Made by a program: the position numbers and the translations under genes
Notes under the pieces: model-generated
What the model was told of the DNA's origin: nothing
Database searches by the model: none
The model's input: only the letters and a program-made list of their open reading frames with translations
Shown: positions 6,064 to 62,646 of the stretch, one piece after another
Numbering within the stretch: position 1 is the first letter of the stretch
How the letters are laid out: each line of letters begins with the position of its first letter
Source of the DNA: a virus
DNA length: 64,000 nt
IMG/VR virus record: IMGVR_UViG_3300023049_000574
Coordinates: 64,001 to 128,000 of that record
Strand: one strand, 5' to 3'

Positions 6064-6078
6064 TTTTATATATAGGAT

Positions 6079-24544: not shown

Positions 24545-24621
24545 CTAAGTCATTTATTTTATATATTAGAAAATTCTGTACCTATATGAAAAAATCAGTA
24601 TATTTGTATAAAAATAATTAC

Positions 24622-25197: not shown

Positions 25198-25207
25198 TAT
25201 ATTTAGT

Positions 25208-25732
25208 ATGGATATTTTTCATTTCATATTAGGTGTAATATTTGGCGCATCCGCAGTAATTGTTGGGATTTCTATTAATGTACATAGGTCAGAATATAAG
25301 AAATATGTGCTACCTTTTAAAAAATTAATCGGTGAGCATATATCTAGTTTTACATTCAACACGAGAGTAGCAAATTTAGTTTACTTCAACCATAAAGATT
25401 ATACGGTTGTTCTAAACCTTAAAGAAAAAGAAGTTTACTTATACCAAGATACTACTATTATCGCAACTACTTTCAAAGAGAACACACAAGAAGTGAAGCA
25501 TCTATATACTTTATTAGAAACAGCATACCACGCAGATATTTATCTTAAGATTATTACAGCATCAAATGGTGTAGTAATGTCACAACCCAAGGAAACAGAT
25601 GTTAGTAAGAAAGAGAAAGAACATGTTCATACACCAAGCGTTGATGATATTTTAGATAAGATCAGCAAAGATGGGATGGATAGCTTATCTGAAATAGAAT
25701 TAGAGATCCTTAAAAATAATAGTGATGATTAA
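25208..25732 (+). CDS. Membrane-anchored protein with C-terminal DUF6576-like motif
   Basis: N-terminal TM helix; VDDILDKISKDGMDSLSEIELEIL. Confidence 0.6.
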   Translation: MDIFHFILGVIFGASAVIVGISINVHRSEYKKYVLPFKKLIGEHISSFTFNTRVANLVYFNHKDYTVVLNLKEKEVYLYQDTTIIATTFKENTQEVKHLYTLLETAYHADIYLKIITASNGVVMSQPKETDVSKKEKEHVHTPSVDDILDKISKDGMDSLSEIELEILKNNSDD

Positions 25733-26541
25733 TCTATAAAAGATTTAATTGCTTTAGCATCTTTTTTACTATAAAAAACACCTATATATCCAATTAATTG
25801 ACTATTATCATACATAGGGTTTATACTAAGATATACCTCTGTATTTCTCATATCGTTTCTATTTAGTTTTACTTTTTGCATAATATTTAAATTGTCTTCT
25901 GAGAATAGATTTTTCTTAGGGAACACATCATAAATGTGTCTTCTCATTATTTCCCCCCTAGTGTACCCGCTTAATTCTTCTGAGCGTTTGTTGAATTCTA
26001 CGATTTTTCCGTATTTATTAACACAAACCATACCTCCTGGGTAATTGTCCAATACTACGTTTTTATATCTAATAGTATCTCTAACCTGAGCGTTTAGTTG
26101 AACTTCTTTGGTTATATCTTCTCCGAATAAAAGATAAAGTTCTTCGTCCTCTAAATACATACCGTGCCATTTAATAGTATATGATTCACCGTGGGTAGAT
26201 ACAATTCTTGATACCATTGATCTTTCTTCCTTCTTTAATATTTCGATATATTGTTTAAAGTCATCAACATCATCAGGATGTATATCTCTTGTTAATAGAC
26301 CATTTATTAAGCTAGTGTGTGAAAGGTTTAATTTTTTCTTTAATAAGTAGTTGTACTTTTTAACACGTGTGTCTTCGTCTATTAATGTGTATATGAATGG
26401 ACACTTATCGAAATATTTCTGTAAGCTTTTAAGATCTTTAGTAGTTTGTAAATTTTTTTCTTTCAAAAAGGAGGACATGTTGCTTATTTCTTTTACTAGT
26501 TCCTCATCACTGTATTTTTTTGATTTATTAAAAATTCCCAC
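25729..26541 (-). CDS. PAS-domain protein (two PAS-like domains, no output domain)
   Basis: IHPDD; GEDIT; LDNYPGGMVCVNKYGKIVEFNKRSEELSGYTRGEIM. Confidence 0.7.
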   Translation of the reverse strand: MGIFNKSKKYSDEELVKEISNMSSFLKEKNLQTTKDLKSLQKYFDKCPFIYTLIDEDTRVKKYNYLLKKKLNLSHTSLINGLLTRDIHPDDVDDFKQYIEILKKEERSMVSRIVSTHGESYTIKWHGMYLEDEELYLLFGEDITKEVQLNAQVRDTIRYKNVVLDNYPGGMVCVNKYGKIVEFNKRSEELSGYTRGEIMRRHIYDVFPKKNLFSEDNLNIMQKVKLNRNDMRNTEVYLSINPMYDNSQLIGYIGVFYSKKDAKAIKSFID

Positions 26542-26600
26542 GTTGTTTATTATTTTAATTTATATATTAAAAGTAAAAGTTCATTTTTAATATATAGGGT

Positions 26601-27353
26601 ATGAGAAAGATACTAGAATTCGAAGAAAAGGACTTAAAACCCACAAATAGCTTTAAATTAAACGATACTTTAAATCCCGATTTATGGGAAGACATGAATC
26701 TGAAACAAGAAGTCAGAGAAAAATTAATCGAAATAGCTAATGAGTTTATATCAATGATACACGGAGAATTCTCAGTAAGTGATATTTATTTCACAGGATC
26801 TTTAGCTTCTTATAATTGGAGTGAGTATTCAGACGTAGATATTCATGTAAAGATTGATTTCAGTGAGATTAATGATGATACCGAATTAGTAGAAGAATAT
26901 TTGAAACTAGTAGCAAAGAAATTCAATAATGGTTATGACATTTCAATATATAAATATGATGTTGAAATATATTTAGAAGATGTTTCTGAAGAAAGGGAAC
27001 ACGTGAATGGATTATATAGTATTTTAAATGATAAGTGGGTAAAGAAAGCTTCGCCATTTGATCGTGAGATAGATGTTAAATTAGTTGAGGAAAAAGCGAT
27101 CAATTTAATGGAACAAATTGATGAACTCTTAGATAAAGATGAAAAGAATGAAATCGAGAAGGAAGAACTAATCGAAGAGATCAATAAGATTTGGCTTAAA
27201 ATAAAAAAGTCTAGAAAAGATGGGATCAGTTCCCCTGACGGTGATCTATCTATTGGTAATCTAGTATTTAAATATCTTAGAAGAAATGAATATATTTCTA
27301 AGATCATAGGAGTCAAAAAGGAAGTAGTAGAAGCTAAGTATAGCTTAGACTAA
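26601..27353 (+). CDS. Pol-beta superfamily nucleotidyltransferase
   Basis: TGSLASYNWSEYSDVDIH...DVEIY; N-terminus MRKILEFEE; TAATATATA at 26588. Confidence 0.75.
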   Translation: MRKILEFEEKDLKPTNSFKLNDTLNPDLWEDMNLKQEVREKLIEIANEFISMIHGEFSVSDIYFTGSLASYNWSEYSDVDIHVKIDFSEINDDTELVEEYLKLVAKKFNNGYDISIYKYDVEIYLEDVSEEREHVNGLYSILNDKWVKKASPFDREIDVKLVEEKAINLMEQIDELLDKDEKNEIEKEELIEEINKIWLKIKKSRKDGISSPDGDLSIGNLVFKYLRRNEYISKIIGVKKEVVEAKYSLD

Positions 27354-31254: not shown

Positions 31255-31743
31255 TTAAACTATTCTTAATATACCTTCTTTGATTACGTTGATATTTCTA
31301 TCACTATCAGGTAAGAAAAGGAATGAATTCATTCTATTCAAAGGTGCTTCAATAGCATTGAATCCTAGTTCAATTAAAGTTTCATTCACATCAAGTTCTT
31401 CTCGTTCTAAATAAGCTATGAAGCTTTTTCCCCCCATATCTTTGTTTTCTTCTAAAGATTCAGCTAAATATTCTTGATCCATATCTCTTAATTTATCGAT
31501 AACAGATTCTACATTATTTATATCCCCAAAATAGTGTAAACTATTAAGTGGTTCAATAAGCTCTATTCTATATAGATTAGCACCATATTCAGAAGCAGCT
31601 TCCTTTGAGTTAGTAATATATATACCATCTCCTAAAAACTTAGATTCGCCACTGGTTTTAGGCATCTGTTTTAACTCAGATAAATCTTTATCTGTTCCAT
31701 GGTAATACCTTTCTTGATTATTATACTCTTTAATAAATTTCAT
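31255..31743 (-). CDS. ADP-ribosyltransferase-fold protein (PARP/PolyVal-like)
   Basis: YYHGT...LGDGIYITNSKEAASEYG; N-terminus MKFIKEY. Confidence 0.6.
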   Translation of the reverse strand: MKFIKEYNNQERYYHGTDKDLSELKQMPKTSGESKFLGDGIYITNSKEAASEYGANLYRIELIEPLNSLHYFGDINNVESVIDKLRDMDQEYLAESLEENKDMGGKSFIAYLEREELDVNETLIELGFNAIEAPLNRMNSFLFLPDSDRNINVIKEGILRIV

Positions 31744-37200: not shown

Positions 37201-37752
37201 ATGAATAAGTATTTAAAAGACACAGAAGAGTTCCACGATAATTTTAATTTACCGATTAATGAAGAAATAGTTGATGATAATTTAGAAGATAGAAAATTAA
37301 GACTATCTTTGATCTTTGAAGAAATGGTAGAATTAGCTCATGCAATGGGTTGTACAAAACATTTAGAATCTTTATGTGATAAACACAAAGGTGGATCTCA
37401 TACTTGGTTATTCAACGGAGAAGAGTCAAGTGATGGCAATACATATAATAAAATAGAAACCTTGGATGCCTTAGGTGATCTACAATATGTAACATCAGGG
37501 TCAGTTATTTCTTTAGGGTATAAAAATGTATTTGATAATGCGTTTACTGATATCCATATAAGTAATATGACTAAACTTTGTAATAACACACAAGAAGCAG
37601 ATGATACTATTAAGTATTATAAGAAAGAAAGGGGAGAAGTAATGGAATTATCTATTCTACCAAAGGGAGATAAGTTTATAGTACAAAGAGAAGATGGTAA
37701 GATCATGAAAAATAAATATTACGAAGCAGTGGATTTAAAAAAATATATTTAA
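37201..37752 (+). CDS. MazG/HisE-like all-alpha NTP pyrophosphohydrolase
   Basis: EFHDNF, LIFEEMVEL, ETLDALGDLQYV, IHISNMTK, DGKIMK. Confidence 0.85.
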   Translation: MNKYLKDTEEFHDNFNLPINEEIVDDNLEDRKLRLSLIFEEMVELAHAMGCTKHLESLCDKHKGGSHTWLFNGEESSDGNTYNKIETLDALGDLQYVTSGSVISLGYKNVFDNAFTDIHISNMTKLCNNTQEADDTIKYYKKERGEVMELSILPKGDKFIVQREDGKIMKNKYYEAVDLKKYI

Positions 37753-38096
37753 TGGAAATAATAGAAATAGAGAGAGAACCACCCGTTGCTGACGAGTCAA
37801 TAAGAGGGTGGGTGTTCCAAATAATTCGACAACAAGTTTTTCTGTTAGCGGTAGATGATCATGCTATAGAATCATTAACTATGAGCGATGATATATATGA
37901 GCTATATGATGATCTAAAAGCCCACTTCTATTTTGAAATAAAGAAAAGCCATGGTCTTAAATATTCTGATAATTTAGAAACAGAATATATGTTTGATTTT
38001 ATAGTTAAAACCAATAAGATAGATATATATTATATAATAAACAGGGATATTAGAAAAGAAAGAGATGGTTATATTAATAGTATATTAAACAGTTAA
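37752..38096 (+). CDS. Hypothetical protein with RD tag
   Basis: Ends RDGYINSILNS. Confidence 0.55.
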   Translation: MEIIEIEREPPVADESIRGWVFQIIRQQVFLLAVDDHAIESLTMSDDIYELYDDLKAHFYFEIKKSHGLKYSDNLETEYMFDFIVKTNKIDIYYIINRDIRKERDGYINSILNS

Positions 38097-47385: not shown

Positions 47386-47700
47386 ATGAAAGTATATATA
47401 GCAAGTCCTTACACTAAGGGCGACACTGCAATAAACGTTAAACGACAATTAGATACATTTGATATACTAATGGATAAGGGATATTTTCCTTTTGCTCCAT
47501 TGTATAGTCATTTCCAACATATGGCACACCCAAGACCATACGAAGATTGGATGACATATGATTTAGAATGGATATTAGTGTGTGATTGTGTACTACGTTT
47601 AGATGGCGAAAGTAGTGGTGCGGATAGAGAAGTCGCACATGCTAAAGAACACGGAATCCCCGTGTATTATTCATTAGAAGAATTATACGCAGCTACTTAA
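47386..47700 (+). CDS. DUF4406/nucleoside 2-deoxyribosyltransferase-like protein
   Basis: VYIASPY...CDCVLRLDGESSGADREV. Confidence 0.7.
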   Translation: MKVYIASPYTKGDTAINVKRQLDTFDILMDKGYFPFAPLYSHFQHMAHPRPYEDWMTYDLEWILVCDCVLRLDGESSGADREVAHAKEHGIPVYYSLEELYAAT

Positions 47701-48122
47701 TGGATCTAACTAAATATAATAACGATCTAAGTGATGTCACTGATTATTTATCAGAACTAGGATTATCTAAGTTAAAGGATAAACATGATGGTAGATACAA
47801 TAAATATAGTGTTCCTAAAGCAGACTTCGAAATACATGTATATAGTTTTATAAAGCAAGGTGACTCAGATTTATTTAAATATTGTGGTGATGAATTATTA
47901 ACTTTAGATATTGTTAGAAGGTTCATGAATATAAGTCATGAAGAATCCAAAGAATTCACAAAAGATATTAAAAGAGATATCCATATCATTAATATAATAC
48001 CTAAAGGATCTAGAGCAGGAATGGTTACTATAACCAATCTAGAAGATTTAGATAACTACTTAGTGGAATATATTCCTTTTTATAAAAGGGATACTAGAAT
48101 AAATAATATTTTAAAATTATAA
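47700..48122 (+). CDS. Hypothetical protein with RD tag
   Basis: Ends RDTRINNILKL. Confidence 0.55.
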   Translation: MDLTKYNNDLSDVTDYLSELGLSKLKDKHDGRYNKYSVPKADFEIHVYSFIKQGDSDLFKYCGDELLTLDIVRRFMNISHEESKEFTKDIKRDIHIINIIPKGSRAGMVTITNLEDLDNYLVEYIPFYKRDTRINNILKL

Positions 48123-48800
48123 ATGGATTTTTTCAAATTAATTTCAAGAGAAAATGTAGGTAAGACTTTCCATATTAAGTTCTTACCCGCTATTGGATCA
48201 GATGATATAATAGATAACTATCCTGTACCTTTTGGTAAGTATCATAAACAAATATACGTTTCTAATGCTATGGTTAACGGAGAGTTTAAACAACTTGTAT
48301 ATAATCAAGTGATGAGGGACTTTTTACAAATATTCTTTCTTGGGACGAGGGGATATATCATCCATCCTGATCCTGAAAAATTAGATTGTGATATAACATA
48401 TAATCATCATAGAATAAATACTACTCTTGAAAACGTATATTTAGATTTAGAGAATAGATATGATGTTACAAGAGATGAGTTAATATATGTTGACTATCCT
48501 GATAATGTACACCCATTTAATATATTATATCCTGCTAATAATGAATATATAATTAATCCTTATAGCTTTAAACTTACTGTAAGGGAGATAACTCTTTTTG
48601 GAACAAGTGGTTTATTAGATTTGGGAAAAATCGAAACGGTTAAATATGATCCTAATTTAATAATTAAAGATCAGAGTGATTCTACTATTAACGAAGCAAA
48701 CGATTTTATGAAAAGCAAACCTAGTTTAGAAGGATTGGCTAAGTATTATGTGGAAGCATACCACAGAGATAAATTCATCGATGATGTTTTAGAAGGTTAA
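48123..48800 (+). CDS. Hypothetical protein with RD tag
   Basis: Ends RDKFIDDVLEG. Confidence 0.55.
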   Translation: MDFFKLISRENVGKTFHIKFLPAIGSDDIIDNYPVPFGKYHKQIYVSNAMVNGEFKQLVYNQVMRDFLQIFFLGTRGYIIHPDPEKLDCDITYNHHRINTTLENVYLDLENRYDVTRDELIYVDYPDNVHPFNILYPANNEYIINPYSFKLTVREITLFGTSGLLDLGKIETVKYDPNLIIKDQSDSTINEANDFMKSKPSLEGLAKYYVEAYHRDKFIDDVLEG

Positions 48801-49823: not shown

Positions 49824-50234
49824 ATGTTTAACTTTTTCCTCAATAGTCATAGGAATGGGATATTAACCTTTTCGGGAACAAATGATTTCAGTGTCGAGTA
49901 TAAACAAGATGGATATGATAGTAGGTTATGTTTTAGGAAGTTTGATAATGGTGATTACCAAAACAAAGTTGTACATACTAAACACCCTAATATACTATTT
50001 AGTGTAATTAAAGGAAAGAAGTCATGGGGTCTATTTGTTAATGAATGGTCAGATGGAATCGTTGAATCTAGCTTTACTATCGATGAAATTAAAACAGTAT
50101 TCGATGAACAGAATATCAAAGTTCCCGATCCATTATGGAAAGACTTTTTAAACACAATTGGTAGAAAGAAAAGGATAAGAAATCAAAAATACTACAATGA
50201 GCTTATTAAAAATAGTATTATTTCCAATACTTAA
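49824..50234 (+). CDS. Hypothetical protein
   Basis: 136-aa ORF. Confidence 0.5.
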   Translation: MFNFFLNSHRNGILTFSGTNDFSVEYKQDGYDSRLCFRKFDNGDYQNKVVHTKHPNILFSVIKGKKSWGLFVNEWSDGIVESSFTIDEIKTVFDEQNIKVPDPLWKDFLNTIGRKKRIRNQKYYNELIKNSIISNT

Positions 50235-51012
50235 AACTCTTAACAGTCATTTCTGATCCGTTATGAGGATGTCCCTTATTAACACTCGTACCTATAATCG
50301 GTACTAAACCACCTTTGATTCTTTCTAAAATGTTCTTATTAGTTATCTTTCTAACTAAGAAACCATCGTAATATAATTCGATTTTATCATCGTTCCATAT
50401 AATAGCAAATGATACATCACGTCCAAATTCGTTTGGAATATAGTGAGTGTGTGCGCCAATATTTTTAGCGTTATCACCATAGTCTTCACCATAATGTATA
50501 TTGGTCTGTGGTTTAGATTTAGTTGCTTTATTTTTTGTATAAATTTCTATAACATCTATTTCAGGTAGAACTTTATAATCCAATTCTTTTTCTGTGCCAT
50601 CTGTTACGAACCATAATGGAGCATGCCAAATACCTGTGGCTGCTTTCATATTAACTATAACTTCCATAGCACCTTTAAAGTATGTTTTCTTACTAAATAA
50701 GATACCTGTTTTAAAGTCCATTGTCTTATTGTTCTTCTTGTTTAACTTAGGGCTAAATTCTGTTGATAACCTTACACCACCTTCTACAAGGTTAGTACAT
50801 GACTTATCGTTATATGATAGATCAGCATCGTCTGAATGTGTTCCCCACCATAAAGTTTTTTGCCACTGTTTAGTTAGTTTACTGAAGTCCTCATGTACAT
50901 CAAGTGTTAATCCCTTAGGATCAAAATCTTTAACCTTACTAGAAAGTCTTCTTCCTATGTTATTTTTATATAACAAGTAATAATTATATAACTTTTCTTT
51001 TAAATTTCCCAT
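50218..51012 (-). CDS. GH16 glycoside hydrolase (beta-glucanase-like)
   Basis: GIWHAPLW...PEIDVIE catalytic motif; WNDDKIELYYDG. Confidence 0.85.
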   Translation of the reverse strand: MGNLKEKLYNYYLLYKNNIGRRLSSKVKDFDPKGLTLDVHEDFSKLTKQWQKTLWWGTHSDDADLSYNDKSCTNLVEGGVRLSTEFSPKLNKKNNKTMDFKTGILFSKKTYFKGAMEVIVNMKAATGIWHAPLWFVTDGTEKELDYKVLPEIDVIEIYTKNKATKSKPQTNIHYGEDYGDNAKNIGAHTHYIPNEFGRDVSFAIIWNDDKIELYYDGFLVRKITNKNILERIKGGLVPIIGTSVNKGHPHNGSEMTVKSFKYWK

Positions 51013-51049: not shown

Positions 51050-51622
51050 ATGAAGTATATTAAACCCTTTAATGAATCTATTAAATTCCCTGAGATTGAT
51101 GATATGTATACTAGACACAATCAGCTAAAGGTAAATAAAGATAATATTCAAGAAGAAATAAATGACATAGAACACAGACTTATTAAAACACAAGACGAAT
51201 ATATTAGTAAAATCGAAACTATATTAAATAAAGTTGTAGAACATTTTAGAATGAATGTTACATCAAACAAGGGGATAATGATAATAAAAACACAAAATGA
51301 TATTATACGACATGATACAAAAGAAAATGATGATGTATTCAATTTGTCTAACTTGGTTGATAATTTTAAATTTAAAACCGCTTATCCAGATAATCCAATT
51401 GAGGTAACACAAGAAGAATATGTGTTATATGATATTTTTGTAGAAAGGTCTATTAAAGACGGAAACAACGGAAACACAAATGTATTTTATTTGATTCCTA
51501 CTTATGATGAAAATGAACTTCATCTTCATTTAACTTATATTCATGTTAAGGATTTGATGAAGTTATATGAAAGATTAGTAAAGAATATTTCAGGTAATAT
51601 GTTAATGAAAATAAATAATTAA
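51050..51622 (+). CDS. MKYIKPFNE-family protein, single-domain paralog of the KKLNE family
   Basis: TAATATATA at 51037; ends LMKINN. Confidence 0.6.
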   Translation: MKYIKPFNESIKFPEIDDMYTRHNQLKVNKDNIQEEINDIEHRLIKTQDEYISKIETILNKVVEHFRMNVTSNKGIMIIKTQNDIIRHDTKENDDVFNLSNLVDNFKFKTAYPDNPIEVTQEEYVLYDIFVERSIKDGNNGNTNVFYLIPTYDENELHLHLTYIHVKDLMKLYERLVKNISGNMLMKINN

Positions 51623-51626
51623 ACTA

Positions 51627-51920
51627 ATGAAAAATATAAAAACATTTGAATCATTTATAGACGATCAGGGTAATATCAAAGACTTCAATCATAAAACATA
51701 TATTATAATTTCCAAGAAACATATTAATAATTTATATTTATCTCAATTAGATCCACCAAGGTTTACGGGAGAGAGTAGCGCAATGAGGAAAACTTATCAT
51801 TTCCCTTCATTAGATGATGCTTTAGAATATAAATCTAAACACCCTAAAAGAAATAAACATTGGAGTATACACGAATATAACCCAACTAAAACGATTAGTA
51901 TGGGTAATACGGTTGGTTAA
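51627..51920 (+). CDS. MKNIKTFE-family small protein
   Basis: N-terminal motif. Confidence 0.55.
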   Translation: MKNIKTFESFIDDQGNIKDFNHKTYIIISKKHINNLYLSQLDPPRFTGESSAMRKTYHFPSLDDALEYKSKHPKRNKHWSIHEYNPTKTISMGNTVG

Positions 51921-52625
51921 TTAATTAGACTTTCTATAATCGATTAAGAAATCATATAATTTTCTAATATTTTCATAGCTTGTACTATTCCTAAAAGCGT
52001 TTAGATCAGTAACCATTAACTCACCGTGTAGATCAAATAACCTTTTCCAATCATCAAATACGCCTTTATATTCAGGGTTATTTTCTACAAATCTTTCAAA
52101 GTTTGGTAAATTAATAACATCACCAATAAATATTTCAGATCGTGCTATATTACTTTGGTTTAAAGATCCATCAACTTCTATAATATTCTTAGAGTCTCGA
52201 TAAGCCTTTCCGATCTCTTTAGCTGAATGTAAATTCAATAAAGCTGTTTCCATATACTTAGATAGTGGTTCAACTAAGACATCATTACCTAATGTGGGTA
52301 TTATTAATTCTTCGAAATTCTCTAATGCTTTTTCGGCATTTTTAGTCTTAATCACTGTGATTAGATCTTCTCTTATCTTCTTAATAAGAGTATCAAGATT
52401 TTTTATGAACTCTTCGCTCTCATTATCCTTCTTCCAATCTCTGAAACCATTTGGGTTATCTATAAATTCATCTTGCTTCATATTCCAATCGAAATTATGT
52501 AAATAATGATGTCCGTATTCACCTCTTAGTGTTTTTAATACATCTTTAGGGAATGAATTAAAATCAACTAAATCCTTTGATTCTATATTATATTCGTTTA
52601 TCTTTGTAATTAAATATTTACCCAT
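51921..52625 (-). CDS. Hypothetical protein (MGKYLITKINE)
   Basis: TAATATATA upstream on the minus strand. Confidence 0.6.
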   Translation of the reverse strand: MGKYLITKINEYNIESKDLVDFNSFPKDVLKTLRGEYGHHYLHNFDWNMKQDEFIDNPNGFRDWKKDNESEEFIKNLDTLIKKIREDLITVIKTKNAEKALENFEELIIPTLGNDVLVEPLSKYMETALLNLHSAKEIGKAYRDSKNIIEVDGSLNQSNIARSEIFIGDVINLPNFERFVENNPEYKGVFDDWKRLFDLHGELMVTDLNAFRNSTSYENIRKLYDFLIDYRKSN

Positions 52626-52639
52626 ATACTATATATTAA

Positions 52640-53410
52640 ATGATAGATCAATTAATACAAGAACTTTATGATGAGGATGGTATTAATCTAGAGATCTCAG
52701 CAGGAGACAAATTAGATAATACCATTAAGTATGTGACAGATAAATTGATTGCTCATATACCCGAAGATTCTTATACTAAAATCAATAGGAATTATATAGA
52801 CATTAAAATAGAAAACAATAGTCGTTATTATAGTAACGTAAAGACAAATGAAGAATATAGAAACCAATTATTTGCAAACGTTAAGTCTGTTGAAATCCAT
52901 AAATTTTACCCACAAGTAGTTAAAAATTTACTTGTATTAAATTTAATTAATGGTTATGACGAAGAAAGGAGAGAATCGTCTGTTGTGTTCCAAGATCATA
53001 AAAAGGTATTTCTCTTTTTAATCAACAGATTTACTGAACAGGATACAGGATGTAAACATATCAATGCTTATATAAACTCTTTTTATGTGTTTGTCCAAGT
53101 ACAAACATCTCCTTATTTAAGAGGAATAAACGAGTTATTTTTAAAAGAATCTAAAGATAACTTGTTGTTTTATATAGACTCTTTGTATTACAAAGAAGTA
53201 AATAAGGGTCTTATCAACCAATTAGATAGGCTTGGGTTAAATTATAGTATAGAAGATATTGATTATATATACATCGGTGAAGGTATTCAGTTTTATGAAA
53301 AACGAAATGATGAAATTTATATGAAGGGGTTCAATCCAAAAAAACAGGAAGAAGTAGAAAATATGATTAAAGTTAGAGAAAGGGATAGGAAAATAGATTC
53401 TCTGTTTTAA
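52640..53410 (+). CDS. Hypothetical protein with RD tag
   Basis: Ends RDRKIDSLF. Confidence 0.6.
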   Translation: MIDQLIQELYDEDGINLEISAGDKLDNTIKYVTDKLIAHIPEDSYTKINRNYIDIKIENNSRYYSNVKTNEEYRNQLFANVKSVEIHKFYPQVVKNLLVLNLINGYDEERRESSVVFQDHKKVFLFLINRFTEQDTGCKHINAYINSFYVFVQVQTSPYLRGINELFLKESKDNLLFYIDSLYYKEVNKGLINQLDRLGLNYSIEDIDYIYIGEGIQFYEKRNDEIYMKGFNPKKQEEVENMIKVRERDRKIDSLF

Positions 53411-53416
53411 TATATA
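53408..53416 (+). promoter_or_regulatory. Putative late promoter TAATATATA (representative copy)
   Basis: Motif typically 4-6 nt before the start at 5556, 26588, 38144, 46539, 51037, 55745 (+) and upstream of 12147, 51012, 52625, 59290, 60171 (-). Confidence 0.7.
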
Positions 53417-53420
53417 CTCT

Positions 53421-53798
53421 ATGAAGTATATAAAACCAATCAATGAACATTTTGATCATCTTCCTAAAGATGAAATTATTGATAGATTAGAACGCCTTCT
53501 AACTATTGCATATATGCAATTAAGAGATGAGCTTATATATAGTAATGTTAATCAACTTTTATTAGATGAGGGGATAAAAAGCTCTGAGTTTATTAAAGTA
53601 AATGATGAAGGTTGGGCAATAGAAGGTTATTATTATACTATGAAAGAAGGTGAAGATGAACCTGCTTATCTTTATGACAGAAAAGAATTAAAACATTTTG
53701 ATAAAGATATACTTGCTAAGATACTTGAATTTCTTGGTAAAGAAGAGAAGTTTTCTCGTATCTTAAACCAAGAGATGTTTAAAAAATTAAATAAGTAA
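53421..53798 (+). CDS. KKLNE-family protein (1 domain)
   Basis: MKYIKPINE ... NQEMFKKLNK; TAATATATA at 53408. Confidence 0.6.
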   Translation: MKYIKPINEHFDHLPKDEIIDRLERLLTIAYMQLRDELIYSNVNQLLLDEGIKSSEFIKVNDEGWAIEGYYYTMKEGEDEPAYLYDRKELKHFDKDILAKILEFLGKEEKFSRILNQEMFKKLNK

Positions 53799-53799
53799 A

Positions 53800-55254
53800 A
53801 TGATAAAAGATTTTAAAACCTTTAGTAAAAACGTGAAATCAGATATAGATAAAATGGATGGTTATAGATCTAAGATTTATAAACTGAAACTACAAATGGA
53901 TGAAACATATAAAGAAGATATCATAGAGGGTGTAATGCTTTTGTTGAATGTTATTAAGGATAAGTATAAGTTTGATAACTTATTTAACTTTCTAAGAGAT
54001 GATATAATCAAAGATAGCACAGATATATTAGAAGCTATTAGAGAATTAGCTATATACGTTGATGACTCTTCATACGCACCTGAGAATATAAGATACATAA
54101 ATGGGAATTGGTATATCGATGTTTATTTCAGAAAATATGAAGAAGGGACGTTAATATTTTCTGAAATAGAAACAGAATCATTATTTGAAATATTTGAAAT
54201 ATTATTACACGGACTAAGTTCTGAATTGAATTCCGAAGCAATGAAAAAATTAAATGAGTCTACTGTATTCTTCGATATAGAAAATACTATTAGTAAAATC
54301 AATGATAAGAGAAAAGAGATCAAAGACACAAAGAAGAAATTAAAACGTTTGAACACAGAAACAATAGAACTCAGTAAAAGTATAAACAAGTATAAAGAAA
54401 AAATGATCTTTCAGATAGAAGACATTTTAATTAATGTAGTTAAAGAAGAAAATACATTAGAGGCTTATATGCGAGAAAACGACATGGAGATTTTATATGA
54501 TGAGATTTTTGATGATATGGTTAAGGTAGTCCATCAAGAATATCCTGATCATGATATATTTAATCTAACTGCAGAGAATGGTTATTGGGCATTTGATGCT
54601 GAGGACGGACAAGGACATGTTGATTCAGTAATAATTAGTGATGATTTAGATACTATATCTGTTTATAAAATATTAAAGATACTTGCTACTATACCACAAG
54701 TGAGTAAGTATATAAATCAGAGCGCAATGAAGAAACTGAATGAATCTAAATTAGAAGAAGTGGGTACTATCCTTAATAATAAAAGGGAATTAGAAGTTAA
54801 GTTAAAAGACTTACAACAAGATGTTAATAAAATAGACCAAACACTTCTTAATATAAAACTTGATCTTATGGTTAAGATAAACAACATATTCGAAAGTCTT
54901 ATGTCTAAATATAATTTAACACCTGATAAAAATGGATTTATTGTTATAGATAAAGCTCTCAAAGAAAAGGGAGTTGATATTTTAGATGAAATGGGTAATA
55001 TAGAATTTAGATTTACTGATATGGGTATTATAAGAAGTACTACATTTAATGACACACAGACAATATCTAATATAGTTCTTGAAACAAGAGATGGAGTATT
55101 AACAGATATTCAAATATCAGGGAATCCTAATATCCATAACTATAAGAGATTAGAGAATGTGGATGTGGGTGGGTTATTTAACTTATATAAATATTTACTG
55201 ATCAATATAGGTGGTAAGTATATTAAAAAAATGAACGAAATGAACAATGATTAA
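53800..55254 (+). CDS. KKLNE-family protein (3 tandem domains)
   Basis: AMKKLNES twice; ends IKKMNEMNND. Confidence 0.65.
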   Translation: MIKDFKTFSKNVKSDIDKMDGYRSKIYKLKLQMDETYKEDIIEGVMLLLNVIKDKYKFDNLFNFLRDDIIKDSTDILEAIRELAIYVDDSSYAPENIRYINGNWYIDVYFRKYEEGTLIFSEIETESLFEIFEILLHGLSSELNSEAMKKLNESTVFFDIENTISKINDKRKEIKDTKKKLKRLNTETIELSKSINKYKEKMIFQIEDILINVVKEENTLEAYMRENDMEILYDEIFDDMVKVVHQEYPDHDIFNLTAENGYWAFDAEDGQGHVDSVIISDDLDTISVYKILKILATIPQVSKYINQSAMKKLNESKLEEVGTILNNKRELEVKLKDLQQDVNKIDQTLLNIKLDLMVKINNIFESLMSKYNLTPDKNGFIVIDKALKEKGVDILDEMGNIEFRFTDMGIIRSTTFNDTQTISNIVLETRDGVLTDIQISGNPNIHNYKRLENVDVGGLFNLYKYLLINIGGKYIKKMNEMNND

Positions 55255-55741
55255 AGATTTTAAACAGTTTTCTAAAGATTTTCAAAATGCTATTTCTAAC
55301 ATAGATAGAAAACAAACAGAGATTAATAGAGAAAAAAGAGACGTAGAAACTAAGTATAAGAAAGAAATGTGTGACATCATCGATAAAATATTAGATGAGT
55401 TAAGAGAAAGATATGACTTCGATGATCTCATTAATTACCTAGAACAGAAAAAGACCAAGGGAGACGAAAAGCTTTTAAATGAAATTAGGTATATATCATT
55501 TGAGTTCTATGGTGGATATTATACTATGGGTACAATAACACATAATGACGAAGACTATGAACTTCTTATGTATGAAGACGAAGATAATTATAGAGAATTT
55601 GCTTTTATTGAAATGGATATTATGCCATTATACGAATTCTTCAAAGGTCTATTGAATTATTATTCTACTATTACGAACTCCGAAGTTTTCAAAAAATTAA
55701 ACGAGATGTCAAATAATATAGCATCCCATTTGGATAAGTGA
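55247..55741 (+). CDS. KKLNE-family protein (1 domain)
   Basis: MIKDFKQF ... NSEVFKKLNE. Confidence 0.6.
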   Translation: MIKDFKQFSKDFQNAISNIDRKQTEINREKRDVETKYKKEMCDIIDKILDELRERYDFDDLINYLEQKKTKGDEKLLNEIRYISFEFYGGYYTMGTITHNDEDYELLMYEDEDNYREFAFIEMDIMPLYEFFKGLLNYYSTITNSEVFKKLNEMSNNIASHLDK

Positions 55742-55757
55742 ATTTAATATATACTTT

Positions 55758-58292
55758 ATGAGCCGTATCAAAACACTTAGGAAATTTAAAAATTATGAAA
55801 GTCAGATAAAAACTATTGATGCCGAATTAGAAGGTAAGGATGGTTATATCAAACGAATGCTTATTAAAAGAAAAGAAGGTATTAGGGATAATATTGAACA
55901 AGATATCGTAAGATTATTACATAGTGTTTTAGATGATAATGGAATAGAAATAGGATCAGATGATACACCTGTTATCCAATTATTGAAAGATAAGAATATT
56001 GAAACTAATTTAACAGAAATTGTTAATATTCCAATAAGACACGGGAATGAAGAAACTAACATTAATGAAATATATCTTTATCGGGGTGATTGTCTTATTA
56101 TGTTCGAAGGTGAAAAATATAGGGAATTAACACATAATATAAAATTAGAAAAGATTTTAGCTATTTATAAAGCTATGATAAGTCTAATTAATAGACCTCT
56201 TTTGAAATCATTAAATGAAGATACTACTAGTGATTATAAAAAGATTTTAACAGAACTTGAACGTGCTGATAAAAATCTTAATGACTTTCGTGAAAAACTA
56301 ATTGATAGTGTAGAGAAAGTAGTAATGGGTATTATTAAAAAATATGAATTACCACTATATGCTGATGTAGCTAAGGAATTAAAAGGGAGGGGAATTGATT
56401 TAAAAATTTATATAGACGGAGAAAACGTAGATATATCATATGATATAGATGATGATTCCTTTTATATATTCGATCAAAGAGGAGCATACCATAGTTTTTT
56501 AAGTACTATGCACATAGAACATTTAATTCAATTATATGATCAACTATTAGCATCACTTAATAAAAATGCTTTCAAGAAACTAAATGAAGGTTTAAAAGAA
56601 GACTATTTAGAATCAGAAAGGGACATAAATGTTTACAGAGCAAATTACACTAGATTACAAAAAGAACTTTCAAAAAAGTATTATGATCTAATGAATATGA
56701 TTGTGAAACAATATGATATTGATCTACAACCCGAAGCACCGATATCATTTTCTATAATAGATAAAGTAATTGAGAAAGATGAGGATAATGGTTTAATCGA
56801 ATTGAAAAACAAGGAGTTAACAGCCATAGGTGATAATCACCATAAATTCATATTAACAGATTTGAGATATTGTCCTTACGAAGAAAAATTTCAAGTAAGT
56901 AAATTATACGGAGATACACATATGGTTACATATCCTTCTAGTATGCAATTTGATCAACTATATCCTATATATGAATCTATTATTAAAGCTTTAAATAAAA
57001 AACCATTAGAGAAATTAAACGAAAGTAATATCAAGGAATTAGAAGAAATGTATTTGAAGAATTTACATAAAGGTGAAGGAGATCATTATGAAATACAGAA
57101 GGAAGTACAAGATTCATTAGAAAAATTATTGGATATGATCATCGATAAATATGATTTAGATCTATCAGACCAAAAAGGACTCTTAGATGAATTAGAGAAA
57201 AAGGATAAAGATAATACTCTTTTAGATTTAAGAGGAAGGTTTTTTAATATGTTCGAAACAGAACACACTTTTTATTTCGTTGATATCCTTAAAACAGAAA
57301 CAGGAGGTTATTATATTAATATAAGAAACGAAGAAGATGGTGCGATAAAAAGAACTAAAGTTAGTTTCACAGGCTTCCATTTCTTATACCCGATATATAC
57401 CGCCCTCATAAGTACTATTAATAAAGAGGCATTTAGATCGATGAACGAAAGAGTGCTTTCTAGAGAAAGTTTCCTTATTAGAGAATCTTTTATACAAGAA
57501 GTAGAAGAATATCAAAATAAAGTAAAGGAGATAGAAGGGAAGATCAGTGATATGAAAAGAAAGAAGGAAGAACTTGATGAAAAATACAAAGGTTCTAAAG
57601 ATAAGATAGAGGGTCATATTGTGGATATATGTGAATACATTAAAAAAGAGTTAATTGAATTTAATCAAGACTTACATATTTATTTAGAAGATGATCAAGG
57701 AAAAATGGGAGATATTATGGCAGCTTTAGGTATATCAAGTGGTGCTTATATGTTTGTAGATCACGGAGATGTGATGTTCGATATAGAAGGTGATGATACG
57801 TATGATATAACAGAGTATAATGTTGACAAACTTTTCGAAGTCTTAAAAATACTTATATCAATACCTAAAGTGAGTGCTTATTATAACAAAGATATGTTTA
57901 AGAAACTTAATGAGTTATATGATAATGATGTAGCTGACACAAAAAGTGAGTATTTAATTAAAGCTAATAAGTTACTTAATGGAGTAATTACTTCATATAA
58001 TTTAATAGAAGAAGGCGAAGATAATGTATCACTAAAAGAAAAATTACAAGAAAAGGGAATTGATATTAATCTCTCTGATATCTATTTATACGATCAAGCT
58101 AGAGTCCAAGACATTATTGCTAAAAAAGCACCATCGGGTTATTCCTTTTTATTGAAATGTATTGAGTCTAAAACAGGTGATGTATTTGAAATTGAATTAG
58201 GACAAGTAGTTAGACGAAAAACTATGGTTAGAATATTTAATACTTTATCAAAGGCTATTAATGCTTTTTTCTTGAAGCAATTAAATGCCTAA
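55758..58292 (+). CDS. KKLNE-family protein (6 tandem domains; possible polyprotein)
   Basis: KSLNE, KKLNE, EKLNE, RSMNE, KKLNE and terminal KQLNA, spaced about 120-155 aa apart; TAATATATA at 55745. Confidence 0.65.
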   Translation: MSRIKTLRKFKNYESQIKTIDAELEGKDGYIKRMLIKRKEGIRDNIEQDIVRLLHSVLDDNGIEIGSDDTPVIQLLKDKNIETNLTEIVNIPIRHGNEETNINEIYLYRGDCLIMFEGEKYRELTHNIKLEKILAIYKAMISLINRPLLKSLNEDTTSDYKKILTELERADKNLNDFREKLIDSVEKVVMGIIKKYELPLYADVAKELKGRGIDLKIYIDGENVDISYDIDDDSFYIFDQRGAYHSFLSTMHIEHLIQLYDQLLASLNKNAFKKLNEGLKEDYLESERDINVYRANYTRLQKELSKKYYDLMNMIVKQYDIDLQPEAPISFSIIDKVIEKDEDNGLIELKNKELTAIGDNHHKFILTDLRYCPYEEKFQVSKLYGDTHMVTYPSSMQFDQLYPIYESIIKALNKKPLEKLNESNIKELEEMYLKNLHKGEGDHYEIQKEVQDSLEKLLDMIIDKYDLDLSDQKGLLDELEKKDKDNTLLDLRGRFFNMFETEHTFYFVDILKTETGGYYINIRNEEDGAIKRTKVSFTGFHFLYPIYTALISTINKEAFRSMNERVLSRESFLIRESFIQEVEEYQNKVKEIEGKISDMKRKKEELDEKYKGSKDKIEGHIVDICEYIKKELIEFNQDLHIYLEDDQGKMGDIMAALGISSGAYMFVDHGDVMFDIEGDDTYDITEYNVDKLFEVLKILISIPKVSAYYNKDMFKKLNELYDNDVADTKSEYLIKANKLLNGVITSYNLIEEGEDNVSLKEKLQEKGIDINLSDIYLYDQARVQDIIAKKAPSGYSFLLKCIESKTGDVFEIELGQVVRRKTMVRIFNTLSKAINAFFLKQLNA

Positions 58293-58814
58293 TTTCTTTC
58301 TTATTATTTCTTCTGCTTTTTCGTTATGTTCGATAGCTTCTTCTTCAGTCATATTAACAAATTCGACTTTTTTGACAGCACCCACTGTTCCAAAATCATC
58401 ATTTTTACCTACTCTAGCAACTCGATAACCAATTATATTTGGTACATAATTACCACCATCGTCACGACCCCAATGTTTTTGTACACTAACTATCTCGAAG
58501 ATATAATGTTTCTTAGCTAACCCACCTTTTTCTGTTAAGTTTTTAAACTTTATATACCTTCCAATGTCCTTTTTTAATTCGTGATCTTTAACAGTAAGAC
58601 CTACTACATCAGTTATTTCTTTAGCGGTTTGGTGTTTATTATCATGTTTTTCGGCTTCTTCTTCCTTATCGAAATCAGGGTTATCATAATTATCTAATAG
58701 TTCTCTTTCGTGGTTTGATAATGAATCTAAGCCCGTATCTGAGATTTTATCTAATATTGCGTTTAGTTCTGTTTGTGATAAATTAGCTTGTTCAAATGTC
58801 TTAACGTATTTCAT
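58281..58814 (-). CDS. MKYVKTFE-family protein with DUF6576-like motif
   Basis: LNAILDKISDTGLDSLSNHERELL. Confidence 0.6.
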   Translation of the reverse strand: MKYVKTFEQANLSQTELNAILDKISDTGLDSLSNHERELLDNYDNPDFDKEEEAEKHDNKHQTAKEITDVVGLTVKDHELKKDIGRYIKFKNLTEKGGLAKKHYIFEIVSVQKHWGRDDGGNYVPNIIGYRVARVGKNDDFGTVGAVKKVEFVNMTEEEAIEHNEKAEEIIRKKLGI

Positions 58815-59391: not shown

Positions 59392-60171
59392 TCACGTAAT
59401 AAATTCTTCTTGTTTACTATTATTCTCATTCATTTTCTTAATCATATCCTTAACAAGTGGTCTACCTTTAGCAAACTTTTTAACTTCCTCTTTAGATAAA
59501 CTAGTATATACTCTTGGATCATTAAGTAATAGATATACTACATCATCATGACCACCCCTTGCTGCGCTTCTAATAGCTCGGTTATACCTATCACTCGGAT
59601 CAACTCTTTTGTCTTGAAGTAATAATTTAACTATATCTAAATAACCATTTTCTGCTGCATCTAGTATAGTAATATTATTATTAGCACTCGGATCAACTCT
59701 TTTATCTTGAAGTAATAACTTAACAGTACTTAAACTTCTATTTTCTGCTGCTAACCTTAATGCATTATTATTATCAGCACTCGGATCAACTCTTACGTCT
59801 TCTAATAAGATTTGAAGTGCGTCTGTATATCCTCTTGCCGCAAACCACATTATAAGAGAATTATTATTATCACTTGGATCAACTCTATGGTCTTTTACTA
59901 AGGTTTTGAATATATCGTTATGATAATTAATAGCCGCATATTTTATTGCCCTTTTATTATCAGCATTAGGATCAACTCTTTCGTCTTTAAGTAATTCTTT
60001 AACTATATCATAGTGTCCTAATTGTGATGTTATTTTTAGAGCAACGTTCCCACTCTTACTAGGATCAACTTCTTTAATTAACTTTTTAACAGTTTTGATA
60101 TCACCTTCGCTACAAGCATCAGTAAATAGAACATCTTTAGAAATAGATTCAAATAATTTAATATACTTCAT
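59392..60171 (-). CDS. Ankyrin-repeat protein (31-aa repeats) with MKYIKLFE N-terminus
   Basis: DxRVDPSxxNN repeats; GGATCAACT recurs every 93 bp. Confidence 0.85.
   Translation of the reverse strand: MKYIKLFESISKDVLFTDACSEGDIKTVKKLIKEVDPSKSGNVALKITSQLGHYDIVKELLKDERVDPNADNKRAIKYAAINYHNDIFKTLVKDHRVDPSDNNNSLIMWFAARGYTDALQILLEDVRVDPSADNNNALRLAAENRSLSTVKLLLQDKRVDPSANNNITILDAAENGYLDIVKLLLQDKRVDPSDRYNRAIRSAARGGHDDVVYLLLNDPRVYTSLSKEEVKKFAKGRPLVKDMIKKMNENNSKQEEFIT
59597..60072 (-). repeat. Coding tandem repeat, 93-bp period (ankyrin)
   Basis: GGATCAACT at 59597, 59690, 59783, 59876, 59969 and 60062. Confidence 0.8.
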
Positions 60172-60729: not shown

Positions 60730-60954
60730 ATGAACAATTATGAATTGATGGTCATATTAATGACCCTAGAAGTATTAAACTTATTCGCATCATATGGGAT
60801 GTCATTTTGGTTTGATAATGAAAAATTGTTGATTCCTTTTACTAATATTTGGGTGAGAAATCGATTAGTAAATAAAAGCAGGTTTCATAAAATGATTATA
60901 CCAAACACAGTAATATGGTTAGGTATAATTATAATTATGTTGATATATGTCTGA
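60730..60954 (+). CDS. Small two-TM membrane protein
   Basis: Hydrophobic termini. Confidence 0.5.
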   Translation: MNNYELMVILMTLEVLNLFASYGMSFWFDNEKLLIPFTNIWVRNRLVNKSRFHKMIIPNTVIWLGIIIIMLIYV

Positions 60955-61342
60955 TATTTTAATAGACGATCTTCCCGAAGACATATATGGTGACCATATA
61001 TGTGTGATCATACCTGAGGGATATGAAGATTTTAAATTAGGAAGTTCATATAGACCTAATGGGATGGGTGGTATGTTTAAGAGAAAGGGATCAACTAAGT
61101 GGGAAACTTCTTGGGGAATAGATATACCTGATGCTGAATATGCATATGGCTATAACATGAATGGTCACACTTGGGACGCAGTAACAGGAGCATCAACGGA
61201 AATAAATATTATGATACCATATGAAGTCTTGATCAGACATTTTAAACACGTTAATGCCTTCACTTCTAATGAAGAAGTACAAGCCTTTATTAAAAGGGTT
61301 AATAGAGATATTAAAATCGATGATATTTTAGATGAAAAATAA
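60947..61342 (+). CDS. Hypothetical protein with RDxKID tag
   Basis: Ends RDIKIDDILDEK. Confidence 0.6.
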   Translation: MSDILIDDLPEDIYGDHICVIIPEGYEDFKLGSSYRPNGMGGMFKRKGSTKWETSWGIDIPDAEYAYGYNMNGHTWDAVTGASTEINIMIPYEVLIRHFKHVNAFTSNEEVQAFIKRVNRDIKIDDILDEK

Positions 61343-61586
61343 CTGCTATATAATACCTTTTAGTAGAAGGAATTTAAATTTTGTGACTGATCATTTTTTA
61401 ATAGGAGACATTATCAGTAAAGATGGTGTTTTATTAGTTTCTGAATTCATATTAATAGATTTAAACCTAATGTTATTTAGTTTTCTTAATGAAGAAGAAG
61501 CCGAAGGTCATAAGGAAGTTAGTCGCAATGAGATAATAACATTAGCTAGGGATTATAAAATAAATAACATTTTAGATAATGAGTAA
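61332..61586 (+). CDS. Small protein with RDxKI tag
   Basis: Ends RDYKINNILDNE. Confidence 0.6.
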   Translation: MKNNCYIIPFSRRNLNFVTDHFLIGDIISKDGVLLVSEFILIDLNLMLFSFLNEEEAEGHKEVSRNEIITLARDYKINNILDNE

Positions 61587-61839
61587 GTATTATTTAATAG
61601 CAAATAAAAATGAAGTTGATTTTGTGTCTACTTATTTTAAGTTCACTTCTACTGAACATACCCACAAGTCTCTTGTAGGATATACTAATTATTTGTATAT
61701 TAACACAGATACTATGACTTATACATTCGAGGAATTGTTAGGTTTTAATGAAATGGCAGAACATAAATTGATCAACATTAAAGACCTTCGATATATAGCA
61801 AGAGATATTAAGATCGATAAAATATTAGAAGATGTCTAA
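61579..61839 (+). CDS. Small protein with RDxKID tag
   Basis: MSKYY...RDIKIDKILEDV. Confidence 0.6.
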   Translation: MSKYYLIANKNEVDFVSTYFKFTSTEHTHKSLVGYTNYLYINTDTMTYTFEELLGFNEMAEHKLINIKDLRYIARDIKIDKILEDV

Positions 61840-62098
61840 GTATTACTTTTTAAATTTATTTGGCTTAAGAAGTGAATTACTTGAACTTGGATTTAAGGAA
61901 GACGATAAGCGTATATTTCCTATGGAAATGAATTACATGGCAGTAGATCTAAATAAAAAAACTTTCTTCGCTGAGGAATACGCAGAAGCGGTAATAAAAA
62001 GGTTAGACTATAAAGCAATACCCGTGGAATATTTTATGAAGAAGTTAGTTGTGTTTCAAAGAGATAAGAAAATCGATAATATTTTAAACGATGAATAA
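61832..62098 (+). CDS. Small protein with RDxKID tag
   Basis: MSKYY...RDKKIDNILNDE. Confidence 0.6.
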   Translation: MSKYYFLNLFGLRSELLELGFKEDDKRIFPMEMNYMAVDLNKKTFFAEEYAEAVIKRLDYKAIPVEYFMKKLVVFQRDKKIDNILNDE

Positions 62099-62360
62099 AT
62101 ACGTAATTAAAATAAGTATGGAATCGACTACTTATCTAAAAGATTTGGGATTTTATTCAGAAGACGAAAAACACTTTAACAAATATTTTGAACACCTTAA
62201 CAAATATTTTGAATACTTCTCAATAAACTTAGAAAAACAATCAGTTATATCTCATACATCACACGATTTGTTATACCAAGAAGTTAGGTTGATTTCCTTA
62301 GCAGAACTTAAAGCTATACTAAGAGATAAGAGAATTGATAATATATTAAATAATGAGTAA
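62091..62360 (+). CDS. Small protein with RDxRID tag
   Basis: MNKYV...RDKRIDNILNNE; internal 21-bp duplication (HFNKYFE/HLNKYFE). Confidence 0.6.
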   Translation: MNKYVIKISMESTTYLKDLGFYSEDEKHFNKYFEHLNKYFEYFSINLEKQSVISHTSHDLLYQEVRLISLAELKAILRDKRIDNILNNE

Positions 62361-62646
62361 ATATTCTTTAATATTATCACCCCCCTTTAATACTGATGAT
62401 AGTATAGATCATATCGTTGGGTATATTATGGAAAACTTTGAGTATAGCGATACTATCCTCAACTATGATCAAATCAAATTTAAACTAAATATCGGTTTAC
62501 TTATAAGAAGCGTGTGGGTGGATACGGAAGAAATGACATGTGTAGTAGACTTGGAATTGGAAGAAGACGAAGATGATTATATAAATATATCCAAACTTAA
62601 ATCAATATTAAGGGAAGAAAAAATTGATAACTTATTGAATGATTAG
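62353..62646 (+). CDS. Small protein with RExKID tag
   Basis: MSKYS...REEKIDNLLND. Confidence 0.6.
   Translation: MSKYSLILSPPFNTDDSIDHIVGYIMENFEYSDTILNYDQIKFKLNIGLLIRSVWVDTEEMTCVVDLELEEDEDDYINISKLKSILREEKIDNLLND

Follow-up and report, generated by a model that had tools for sequence, protein, structure and literature searches.

The DNA analysed here, in the following called the window, comprises 64,000 nucleotides (nt), namely bases 64001-128000 of the single-contig virus record IMGVR_UViG_3300023049_000574 (145,521 bp, G+C content about 29%), which is classed as linear by IMG/VR and has an estimated completeness of 58% (CheckV). The record represents a large uncultured phage, and scans of the Pfam and PHROG type identified phage-type replication, nucleotide-metabolism, methylase, endolysin and tRNA genes on the contig. 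Between positions 51050 and 58292 of the window, five co-directional open reading frames (ORFs) hold 12 homologous units of 123-190 amino acids (aa), with one, one, three, one and six units per ORF. Each unit of this family, which is called family A, ends in a motif of the type hydrophobic-K-K-[L/M/I]-N-E, which might be a site of proteolytic cleavage. A preliminary description of the locus had reported about 12 paralogous domains, occurring as singletons and as fusions of three and six units, and exactly this arrangement was found.

All five ORFs are on the plus strand, and the first two encode distant singleton units. ORF 51050-51622 (190 aa) starts with M-K-Y-I-K-P-F-N-E and ends with L-M-K-I-N-N directly before the stop codon, while ORF 53421-53798 (125 aa) starts with M-K-Y-I-K-P-I-N-E and ends with M-F-K-K-L-N-K and a stop. 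Both are matched by a hidden Markov model (HMM) made from the 10 core units of the other three ORFs (core-10 HMM; E values 1.2e-7 and 9e-5, respectively). ORF 53800-55254 (484 aa) contains three units with terminal motifs at 54241-54258, 54727-54744 and 55222-55239, the last of which is followed by the 4-aa tail M-N-N-D. Its end overlaps by 8 nt with the start of the next ORF, the singleton 55247-55741 (164 aa), which has its motif at 55688-55705 and then a tail of 11 aa. The six-unit ORF 55758-58292 (844 aa) has motifs at 56202-56219, 56571-56588, 57006-57023, 57432-57449, 57897-57914 and 58272-58289, and the last of these reads L-K-Q-L-N-A and is followed by the stop codon. The three singletons therefore end in or near the motif, as had been described. 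An in silico cut behind every motif divides 53800 into units of 153, 162 and 165 aa and 55758 into units of 154, 123, 145, 142, 155 and 125 aa, and it leaves 153 aa of 55247 plus the 11-aa tail.

The homology of the units, for which splitting at the motifs and alignment had been proposed as a check, could be verified. An HMM derived from only the six units of 55758 retrieved the other four ORFs as its best four non-self matches among 197 ORFs (53800, E 1e-5; 55247, 2e-5; 51050, 1.6e-4; 53421, 1.7e-3), followed by a next match at 0.011, and BLASTP aligned unit 1 of 53800 with 55247 at 29% identity over 153 aa (E 4e-14). The units are acidic proteins of 14-23 kDa with computed isoelectric points of 4.65-6.34. 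The ORF at genome positions 26541-27041 (minus strand) is probably a 13th unit; its match to the core-10 HMM is borderline (E 0.016), and both of its ends resemble those of other family-A ORFs. As a separate observation, two paralogous genes for GH16 glycoside hydrolases (window 50218-51012 and genome 25712-26560, both on the minus strand) each adjoin a family-A unit gene, i.e. 51050 and the ORF at genome 26541-27041, which suggests a duplicated two-gene block.

An AlphaFold2 model of the unit, computed from the 10-unit alignment, has a predicted local distance difference test (pLDDT) score of 89.6. In addition to an N-terminal helix (residues 2-56) and two short helices, it contains a sheet of four strands (84-118), and the motif lies at the end of its C-terminal helix (125-152). 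The suggested architecture, with a helix at the start and the motif at the end of each unit, is thus reproduced by the model. When two consecutive units were modelled together (pLDDT 71.6), the motif was predicted as a short helix (146-151) and the residues behind it as a coil (152-155) with a pLDDT dip to 65-68, after which the long helix of the second unit is predicted to begin. A fold could not be assigned: the best E values of Foldseek with the unit model were 0.18 against PDB and 0.04 against BFVD, the best Z score of VIA-align wide was 6.5 and is inside the noise range stated for the tool, and the best score in the ESM Atlas search was 0.83. Pfam (E <= 1e-3) and PHROG did not reveal a family in any unit ORF.

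All 10 aligned core units have the Asn of N-E, and the Glu as well as an Asn eight residues upstream are conserved in at least 90% of the units. The pattern K-x-[FLIM]-N-[EQ] is present 34 times in the proteome, versus 10.6 +/- 3.1 times in 200 within-protein shuffles (maximum 20). The exact hexapeptide F-K-K-x-N-E was found six times in this genome; in 26 related or leader-bearing virus records together it was found seven times, versus four matches of a reversed-pattern control. The preliminary description had named K-K-L-N-E as the punctuation of the family, and such a sequence is indeed present at the unit ends, but the invariant part is only hydrophobic-N-E. The codons of the motif vary synonymously (AAA/AAG, TTA/CTG/CTA/CTT, AAT/AAC, GAA/GAG), and therefore the constraint acts on the protein and a signal at the DNA level is ruled out.

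The motif is not confined to family A. Two ankyrin proteins had been claimed to end in it as well, and both do. The ankyrin-repeat protein encoded at 59392-60171 on the minus strand (259 aa; Pfam Ank_2, E 6e-29) starts with M-K-Y-I-K-L-F-E-S and ends with I-K-K-M-N-E plus a tail of 10 aa, and the second, ankyrin-like ORF at 5569-6066 on the plus strand (164 aa, GTG start) begins with (V)K-Y-I-K-V-F-E-Q and ends with F-I-K-M-N-E directly before the stop codon. Just beyond the window, a 756-aa ORF (genome 133567-135837; L005:6571-8838, minus strand) contains the motif as well, and cuts behind it would give five units with lengths of 138-166 aa. The five align with one another, and in a profile-profile comparison only their last nine residues align with family A (profile A4 versus A1). 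At one of their junctions I-S-M-N-E is directly followed by K-R-V-K-T-F-E-S-F, so that a C-terminal motif and an N-terminal-type leader adjoin, as expected from the fusion of separate genes. A metagenome relative (L149/L150, G+C 0.26-0.27) encodes two family-A ORFs with six units each (941 and 1080 aa), and in addition L150 has two ORFs of 540 and 484 aa that are punctuated by [M/A]-K-K-[I/L]-N-E and do not match the family-A HMM. Judged from these sequences, the motif is a portable element and not part of one fold.

The distribution of the Glu follows a simple rule. Wherever four or more residues come after a unit-end motif, its last position is Glu (34 of 34 cases in family A, its relatives, the 756-aa ORF and the ankyrin protein 59392), whereas this applies to none of the six motifs that end at the last residue of a protein, where N, K, A, T, K and Q are found instead. 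When six loose matches inside units are counted, as in the script-made table, the ratio is 34 of 40 versus 0 of 6 (Fisher p 1e-4); the set includes three proteins that are orthologous to others, so that the independent cases are fewer than these counts. A seventh terminal case with another residue than Glu is present in L150 (F-K-K-I-N-T and a stop). The Glu is kept even ahead of unconserved tails of 4-15 aa. As far as the compared sequences go, the Glu matters only where a peptide bond comes after it, and natural C-termini coincide with the predicted cut position. Both the Glu rule and the C-termini at the same bond are expected of a cleavage site, and a merely structural end of a helix accounts for them less readily.

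A comparison with close relatives revealed that the arrays change by whole units. Three proteins encoded on a 21.5-kb contig exemplify this. P0001 (720 aa) has 78% identity to 55758 over units 3-6 and also matches unit 1, while unit 2 is absent and unit 3 is joined directly to the L-N-E of unit 1. P0004 (333 aa) has 60% identity to 53800 over units 1-2, and of unit 3 only the first three and the last 12 residues are present. P0009 is the ortholog of 55247 (85% identity). The idea of an expandable array is in agreement with these breakpoints at the motif, and we propose that close relatives can differ by whole units because every unit carries its own site. Between orthologs the [L/M/I]-N-E core is constant and the three preceding residues (P4-P6) vary. 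The known range of the family is narrow. A profile search of 1.84 billion representatives yielded eight matches at E <= 1e-3, two of which are the window's own proteins; among the matches, P0008 (1486 aa) was rejected as a family member, being an unrelated repeat protein that does not contain the motif. Word-indexed searches confirmed P0001 and added only P0009. The region had no match in GenBank phages by blastn and tblastn (50,697 phage records for tblastn), and related loci were found neither in viral contigs searched with the 844-aa protein and with P0005 nor in metagenome contigs searched with the 844-aa protein. The A1 profile did not match any of the 26 related or leader-bearing virus records at E <= 0.01, and therefore family A is not shared with them.

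The N-terminal leader is the second recurring element. The sequence M-K-x-[ILVF]-K-x-[FLIY]-[ENDS]-x, with agreement at five or more of six positions, starts 16 of 197 ORFs versus 4 of 802 internal Met positions. In the distant singletons 51050 and 53421 the leader reads M-K-Y-I-K-P-[F/I]-N-E, so that these proteins have a core of the hydrophobic-N-E type at both ends. Two direct neighbours of the array are also leader-bearing, namely ORF 51627-51920 on the plus strand (97 aa, M-K-N-I-K-T-F-E-S-F), which has no homology to family-A units, and ORF 58281-58814 on the minus strand (177 aa, M-K-Y-V-K-T-F-E-Q), which contains a DUF6576 segment. A pattern scan detected the 8-residue version M-K-Y-I-K-L-F-E at the start of proteins at 124 or more IMG/VR loci (L016-L139). 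Among the matches listed, the ATG is the first after an in-frame stop in 120 of 127 cases, the frame stays open in 123 of 127, the viral contigs have a G+C content of 0.18-0.48 and a size of up to 640 kb, and the downstream proteins are very diverse. A literature search covering openly accessible papers did not uncover one that contains the letters of this leader. ART-PolyVal, the ADP-ribosyltransferase family of polyvalent proteins, is weakly matched by one leader-bearing ORF of 162 aa (31258-31743, minus strand) at E 3e-6, which does not reach the cut-off of Pfam; the ORF is reminiscent of T4 Alt, an ADP-ribosyltransferase that is packaged and has its leader cleaved off.

Since the contig is only about 58% complete and without recognisable head genes, the protease that might recognise the motif had to be inferred from relatives. 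Of 27 records with the motif or the leader, 14 encode full-length homologs (30-50% identity) of the 1072-aa protein at 14484-17702 of the window. A match to Peptidase_S77 is present in 14 of 26 leader-bearing records (eight above Pfam's cut-off; open frames of 582-808 aa), in three of the five leader-bearing records that are at least 90% complete, and in eight of the 14 records that encode a homologous 1072-aa-type protein. Nine loci with head modules (L140-L148) were compared, and PHROGs assigned the three ORF types tested to head maturation protease (phrog_207), major head protein and portal, respectively. The tripeptide hydrophobic-N-E occurs 54 times in the 6,205 aa of the nine protease ORFs versus 75 times in 39,599 aa of neighbouring ORFs, which is a 4.6-fold enrichment (Poisson p 3e-19), and Ser is the next residue at 22 of the 54 sites. 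In all nine protease ORFs one such site is located just past the protease domain, at residues 164-189, in eight of them with Ser as the next residue. It has been reported that T4-type and giant-phage proteases trim their own C-terminus just after the protease domain (PMC5694885, PMC10052503). The capsid proteins of six of the nine loci start with 4-19 variable residues that end in [L/I/M/V]-[L/I]-N-E, followed by a conserved block. Near residue 45, the sequence is H-x-[L/I/M]-N-E in seven of the nine capsid proteins and L-Y-E, which keeps the hydrophobic residue and the Glu, in the other two. Furthermore, a separate T4-like record of 267 kb encodes an S77 protease (E 2e-28), a protein with D-I-F-K-K-I-N-E at its N-terminus, and a scaffold-like ORF with three such N-E sites. 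Indirectly, these sequence comparisons support that hydrophobic-N-E matches the likely specificity of the T4-type head protease (Peptidase_S77, phrog_207) of related giant phages. The head-protease ORFs of the nine loci are unusually long (573-804 aa), and apparently a scaffold-like tail with many hydrophobic-N-E sites is fused to the protease; in one of them V-N-E-S occurs three times in tandem and is followed by I-N-E-N.

Cleavage after the Glu is favored by the Glu rule, by the whole-unit differences between close relatives with breakpoints at the motif, and by the enrichment of hydrophobic-N-E in the head-protease ORF of related giant phages and its position behind the protease domain. The best-supported explanation, which we consider about as likely as not, is that the family-A ORFs encode precursor polyproteins of a head-loaded protein family that are cut at the motif by the head protease. 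According to this scenario, a head-maturation protease of the T4 type (Peptidase_S77) would cut after the Glu of the motif and thereby turn the products of the three-unit and six-unit ORFs into separate proteins within the prohead. Hydrophobic-N-E also ends the leader M-K-Y-I-K-x-F-N-E, which is found on many unrelated proteins of the phage and its relatives, and singletons that have both this leader and a tail behind the motif would be trimmed at both ends. With a site in each unit, the product would remain processable when units are duplicated, deleted or fused. Cleavage, the identity of the protease in this phage, head loading, injection and any effector role after ejection are all steps that we infer. 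The earlier proposal of cut polyproteins is thus supported in part, namely by the boundary exactly after the Glu, by the occurrence of the motif on unrelated domains, and by the fit of the site to the likely specificity of the S77 protease of the relatives.

Several observations weigh against this interpretation. A head protease, a capsid protein, a portal and a terminase could not be recognised on the 145.5-kb contig, which is about 58% complete; the head module probably sits in the missing part of the genome. The link to the protease runs through relatives that are at most 50% identical in one protein, 12 of the 26 leader-bearing records, mostly fragments, do not have an S77 match, and the N-terminal site of the capsid protein is absent in the three closest relatives. 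The Glu rule has deviations: the ankyrin-like ORF 5569-6066 has a terminal motif with Glu (K-M-N-E and a stop), and one motif-like end in L150 has Gly (R-L-N-G plus three residues). The conservation reaches about 10-12 residues upstream (N-x-x-x-hydrophobic-K-K-L-N-E, with a near-invariant N144), which exceeds the needs of known head-protease sites, and thus the motif helix may also, or only, be structural. Finally, 53800, 55247 and 55758 begin with leader-like sequences in which hydrophobic-N-E is absent, and the 109 distinct M-K-Y-I-K-L-F-E proteins among the matches listed include only 21 in which positions 11-13 read hydrophobic-x-E (hydrophobic-N-E in 11 proteins); when all of positions 9-20 are considered, hydrophobic-x-E is present in 38. 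Because so few leaders run on to a clear site, a combination of tag and cut site is not a general property of the leader.

The most serious alternative, although we judge it doubtful, is that the ORFs encode uncleaved modular repeat proteins, e.g. a fibrous, scaffold-like or decoration component of the beads-on-a-string type. The motif would then represent the end of the last helix and a hinge, and N-terminal look-alikes would arise where arrays break into separate genes. This explanation is in agreement with the models, in which the units are rich in helices, have a 55-residue N-terminal helix, and contain the motif inside a predicted helix (125-152 and 146-151, respectively), and it would also be compatible with the conservation of about 10 residues upstream of the motif and with a contig on which the protease was not found. 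However, the motif recurs on unrelated folds, which is not expected of a helix end with a purely structural role: it is present on ankyrin repeats, on the five units of the 756-aa ORF, and in two L150 ORFs of 540 and 484 aa. In addition, a structural role does not account for the presence of the Glu before unconserved tails of 4-15 aa and its absence at six of six true C-termini, nor for the enrichment of the tripeptide in the protease ORFs of the relatives.

It is distinctly unlikely that the motif is a signal for another agent and that the products are not head cargo. Such an agent could be a cytoplasmic protease, either of the host or a different one of the phage, or a further machine, e.g. 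a ClpB-like AAA+ protein, to which the motif would dock. Candidates for such an agent are encoded on the contig, namely a ClpB-like AAA+ protein (9177-11273) and a rhomboid (24586-25194), and most M-K-Y-I-K-L-F-E leaders lack a canonical site in their first 20 residues, so that the leader may have another job. Rhomboids, however, cut membrane segments, which are absent from family-A units. The presence of the tripeptide in the head-protease ORFs of relatives, at the N-terminus of their capsid proteins (six of nine) and near capsid residue 45 (seven of nine) points to the head protease instead, and the T4 precedent ties a leader to a cleavage site (PMC9026906). A separate synthesis of the units by internal translation starts or recoding at the A-rich motif DNA is very improbable. 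An in-frame ATG is indeed part of the sequence A-M-K-K-L-N-E at the two junctions within 53800, but Met is missing immediately before the K-K-L-N-E core at four out of five internal junctions in 55758, the synonymous codon variation implies that a fixed slippery sequence is not conserved, and the constraint falls on the residues N and E.

The interpretation as head-loaded precursor polyproteins can be extended to a cargo-cassette system, for which we have rather little confidence. One N-terminal address tag would load three to six diversified proteins, the number of units would be reshuffled among strains as a fast-evolving injected arsenal, e.g. of acidic anti-defence proteins, and at least two or three unrelated unit families would share the punctuation.

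The closest parallel to precursors cut in the head is the capsid targeting sequence of T4. It comprises 10 N-terminal residues, of which positions 4 and 7 are important for targeting and positions 8 and 10 for processing by gp21, and an exchange of Glu for Asp stops cutting, but not loading (PMC9026906; PMC3012670). T4 Alt is trimmed at both ends (PMC9026906), and T4-related phages have further proteins with similar leaders (PMC9026906; PMC3012670). As on the internal proteins IPI-III and Alt of T4, a short N-terminal leader is common to unrelated, fast-evolving proteins, in some of which it ends in a hydrophobic-x-Glu site, and the relatives of this phage carry Peptidase_S77, which is the same protease family. 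In contrast to T4, the site is here also present between tandem homologous units, so that one precursor would yield three or six mature proteins, the P2 residue is almost always Asn, and the system is known from sequence alone. The internal proteins of T4 are basic, whereas the family-A units are acidic.

The proteases of giant phages all cut after Glu, often at several sites, and these phages have large families of head paralogs, of which diverged members can have identical N-termini (PMC5694885, PMC10052503). It had been stated that the sites of gp21 and of the phiKZ protease have the form hydrophobic-x-E; this fits T4 gp21, but the sites are S-x-E in the phiKZ type and A-x-E in SPN3US (PMC5694885, PMC9026906). 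The gp53/gp54 and "paralog B" proteins of SPN3US and the inner-body proteins of phiKZ and 201phi2-1 would resemble family A, as interpreted here, in that they form large families of head paralogs with multi-site cuts after Glu, and also in the N-termini that diverged members share (PMC5694885, PMC10052503). However, they are encoded by separate genes, the cuts take long propeptides off one mature protein, and the motifs are A-x-E or S-x-E. No match between the family-A units and the inner-body families of SPN3US and phiKZ was found with PHROG or with tblastn (50,697 phage records), and there was no clear fold match.

In polyvalent proteins, 2-15 known effector domains of different kinds are combined in a single packaged polypeptide, often together with a peptidase domain of their own (PMC5512222). 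As in the multi-unit ORFs of family A, one polypeptide holds many domains, and for polyvalent proteins transfer along with the DNA and processing into parts have been predicted (Iyer et al., 2017, PMC5512222). In contrast, the units described here are paralogs of one unassigned domain, all of one family, and a domain of the polyvalent type was not found in them with Pfam. Searches with Pfam and PHROG did not reveal a peptidase domain in the unit ORFs, and the unit fold has no clear match. Polyproteins of the picornavirus type also have a repeated short site at each boundary and a natural C-terminus that equals a cut position. The differences are that the present virus is a DNA phage, that the products are paralogs and not a fixed set of enzymes, and that the protease would be encoded elsewhere in the genome. 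The new part is the polyprotein arrangement, with a putative protease site between tandem paralogous units. A search of openly accessible papers for the term "polyprotein" along with prohead protease, ejection proteins or inner body did not retrieve a phage-head paper that uses it.

If the motif is cut, it would represent a simple grammar for head cargo, because any domain flanked by hydrophobic-N-E could join or leave a precursor. The T4 principle of tagging, loading and clipping would be widened from single proteins to expandable polyproteins, and a sequence rule would be available for the prediction of virion cargo and of mature protein ends in uncultured giant phages. In that case the small acidic proteins of family A would be candidates for early host takeover or anti-defence.

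Additional features of the contig were observed. The ClpB-like protein encoded at 9177-11273 is a double AAA+ protein (AAA_2, E 2e-64; phrog_4871, E 2.5e-240). The rhomboid protease gene 24586-25194 is part of the region 23963-25729, in which it is located between two ORFs with DUF6576-matching C-termini, and a DUF6576 segment is also present near the N-terminus of the leader-bearing ORF 58281-58814. Counts of promoters and terminators were not above those in shuffled sequences. A second portable terminal motif is the C-terminal tail R-D-x-K-I-D-x-I-L, which is present on 18 of 197 ORFs, versus two internal matches in 42,626 aa. It was found at 60947-62646 (six small ORFs), 6849-8468, 37752-38096 and 47700-48800 of the window and at genome positions 51110-52779. 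The respective ORFs often form tandem arrays, with 60-130 aa each and ATGA start/stop overlaps, and the metagenome relative contains an array of nine ORFs that resembles them (L150:13259-15765).

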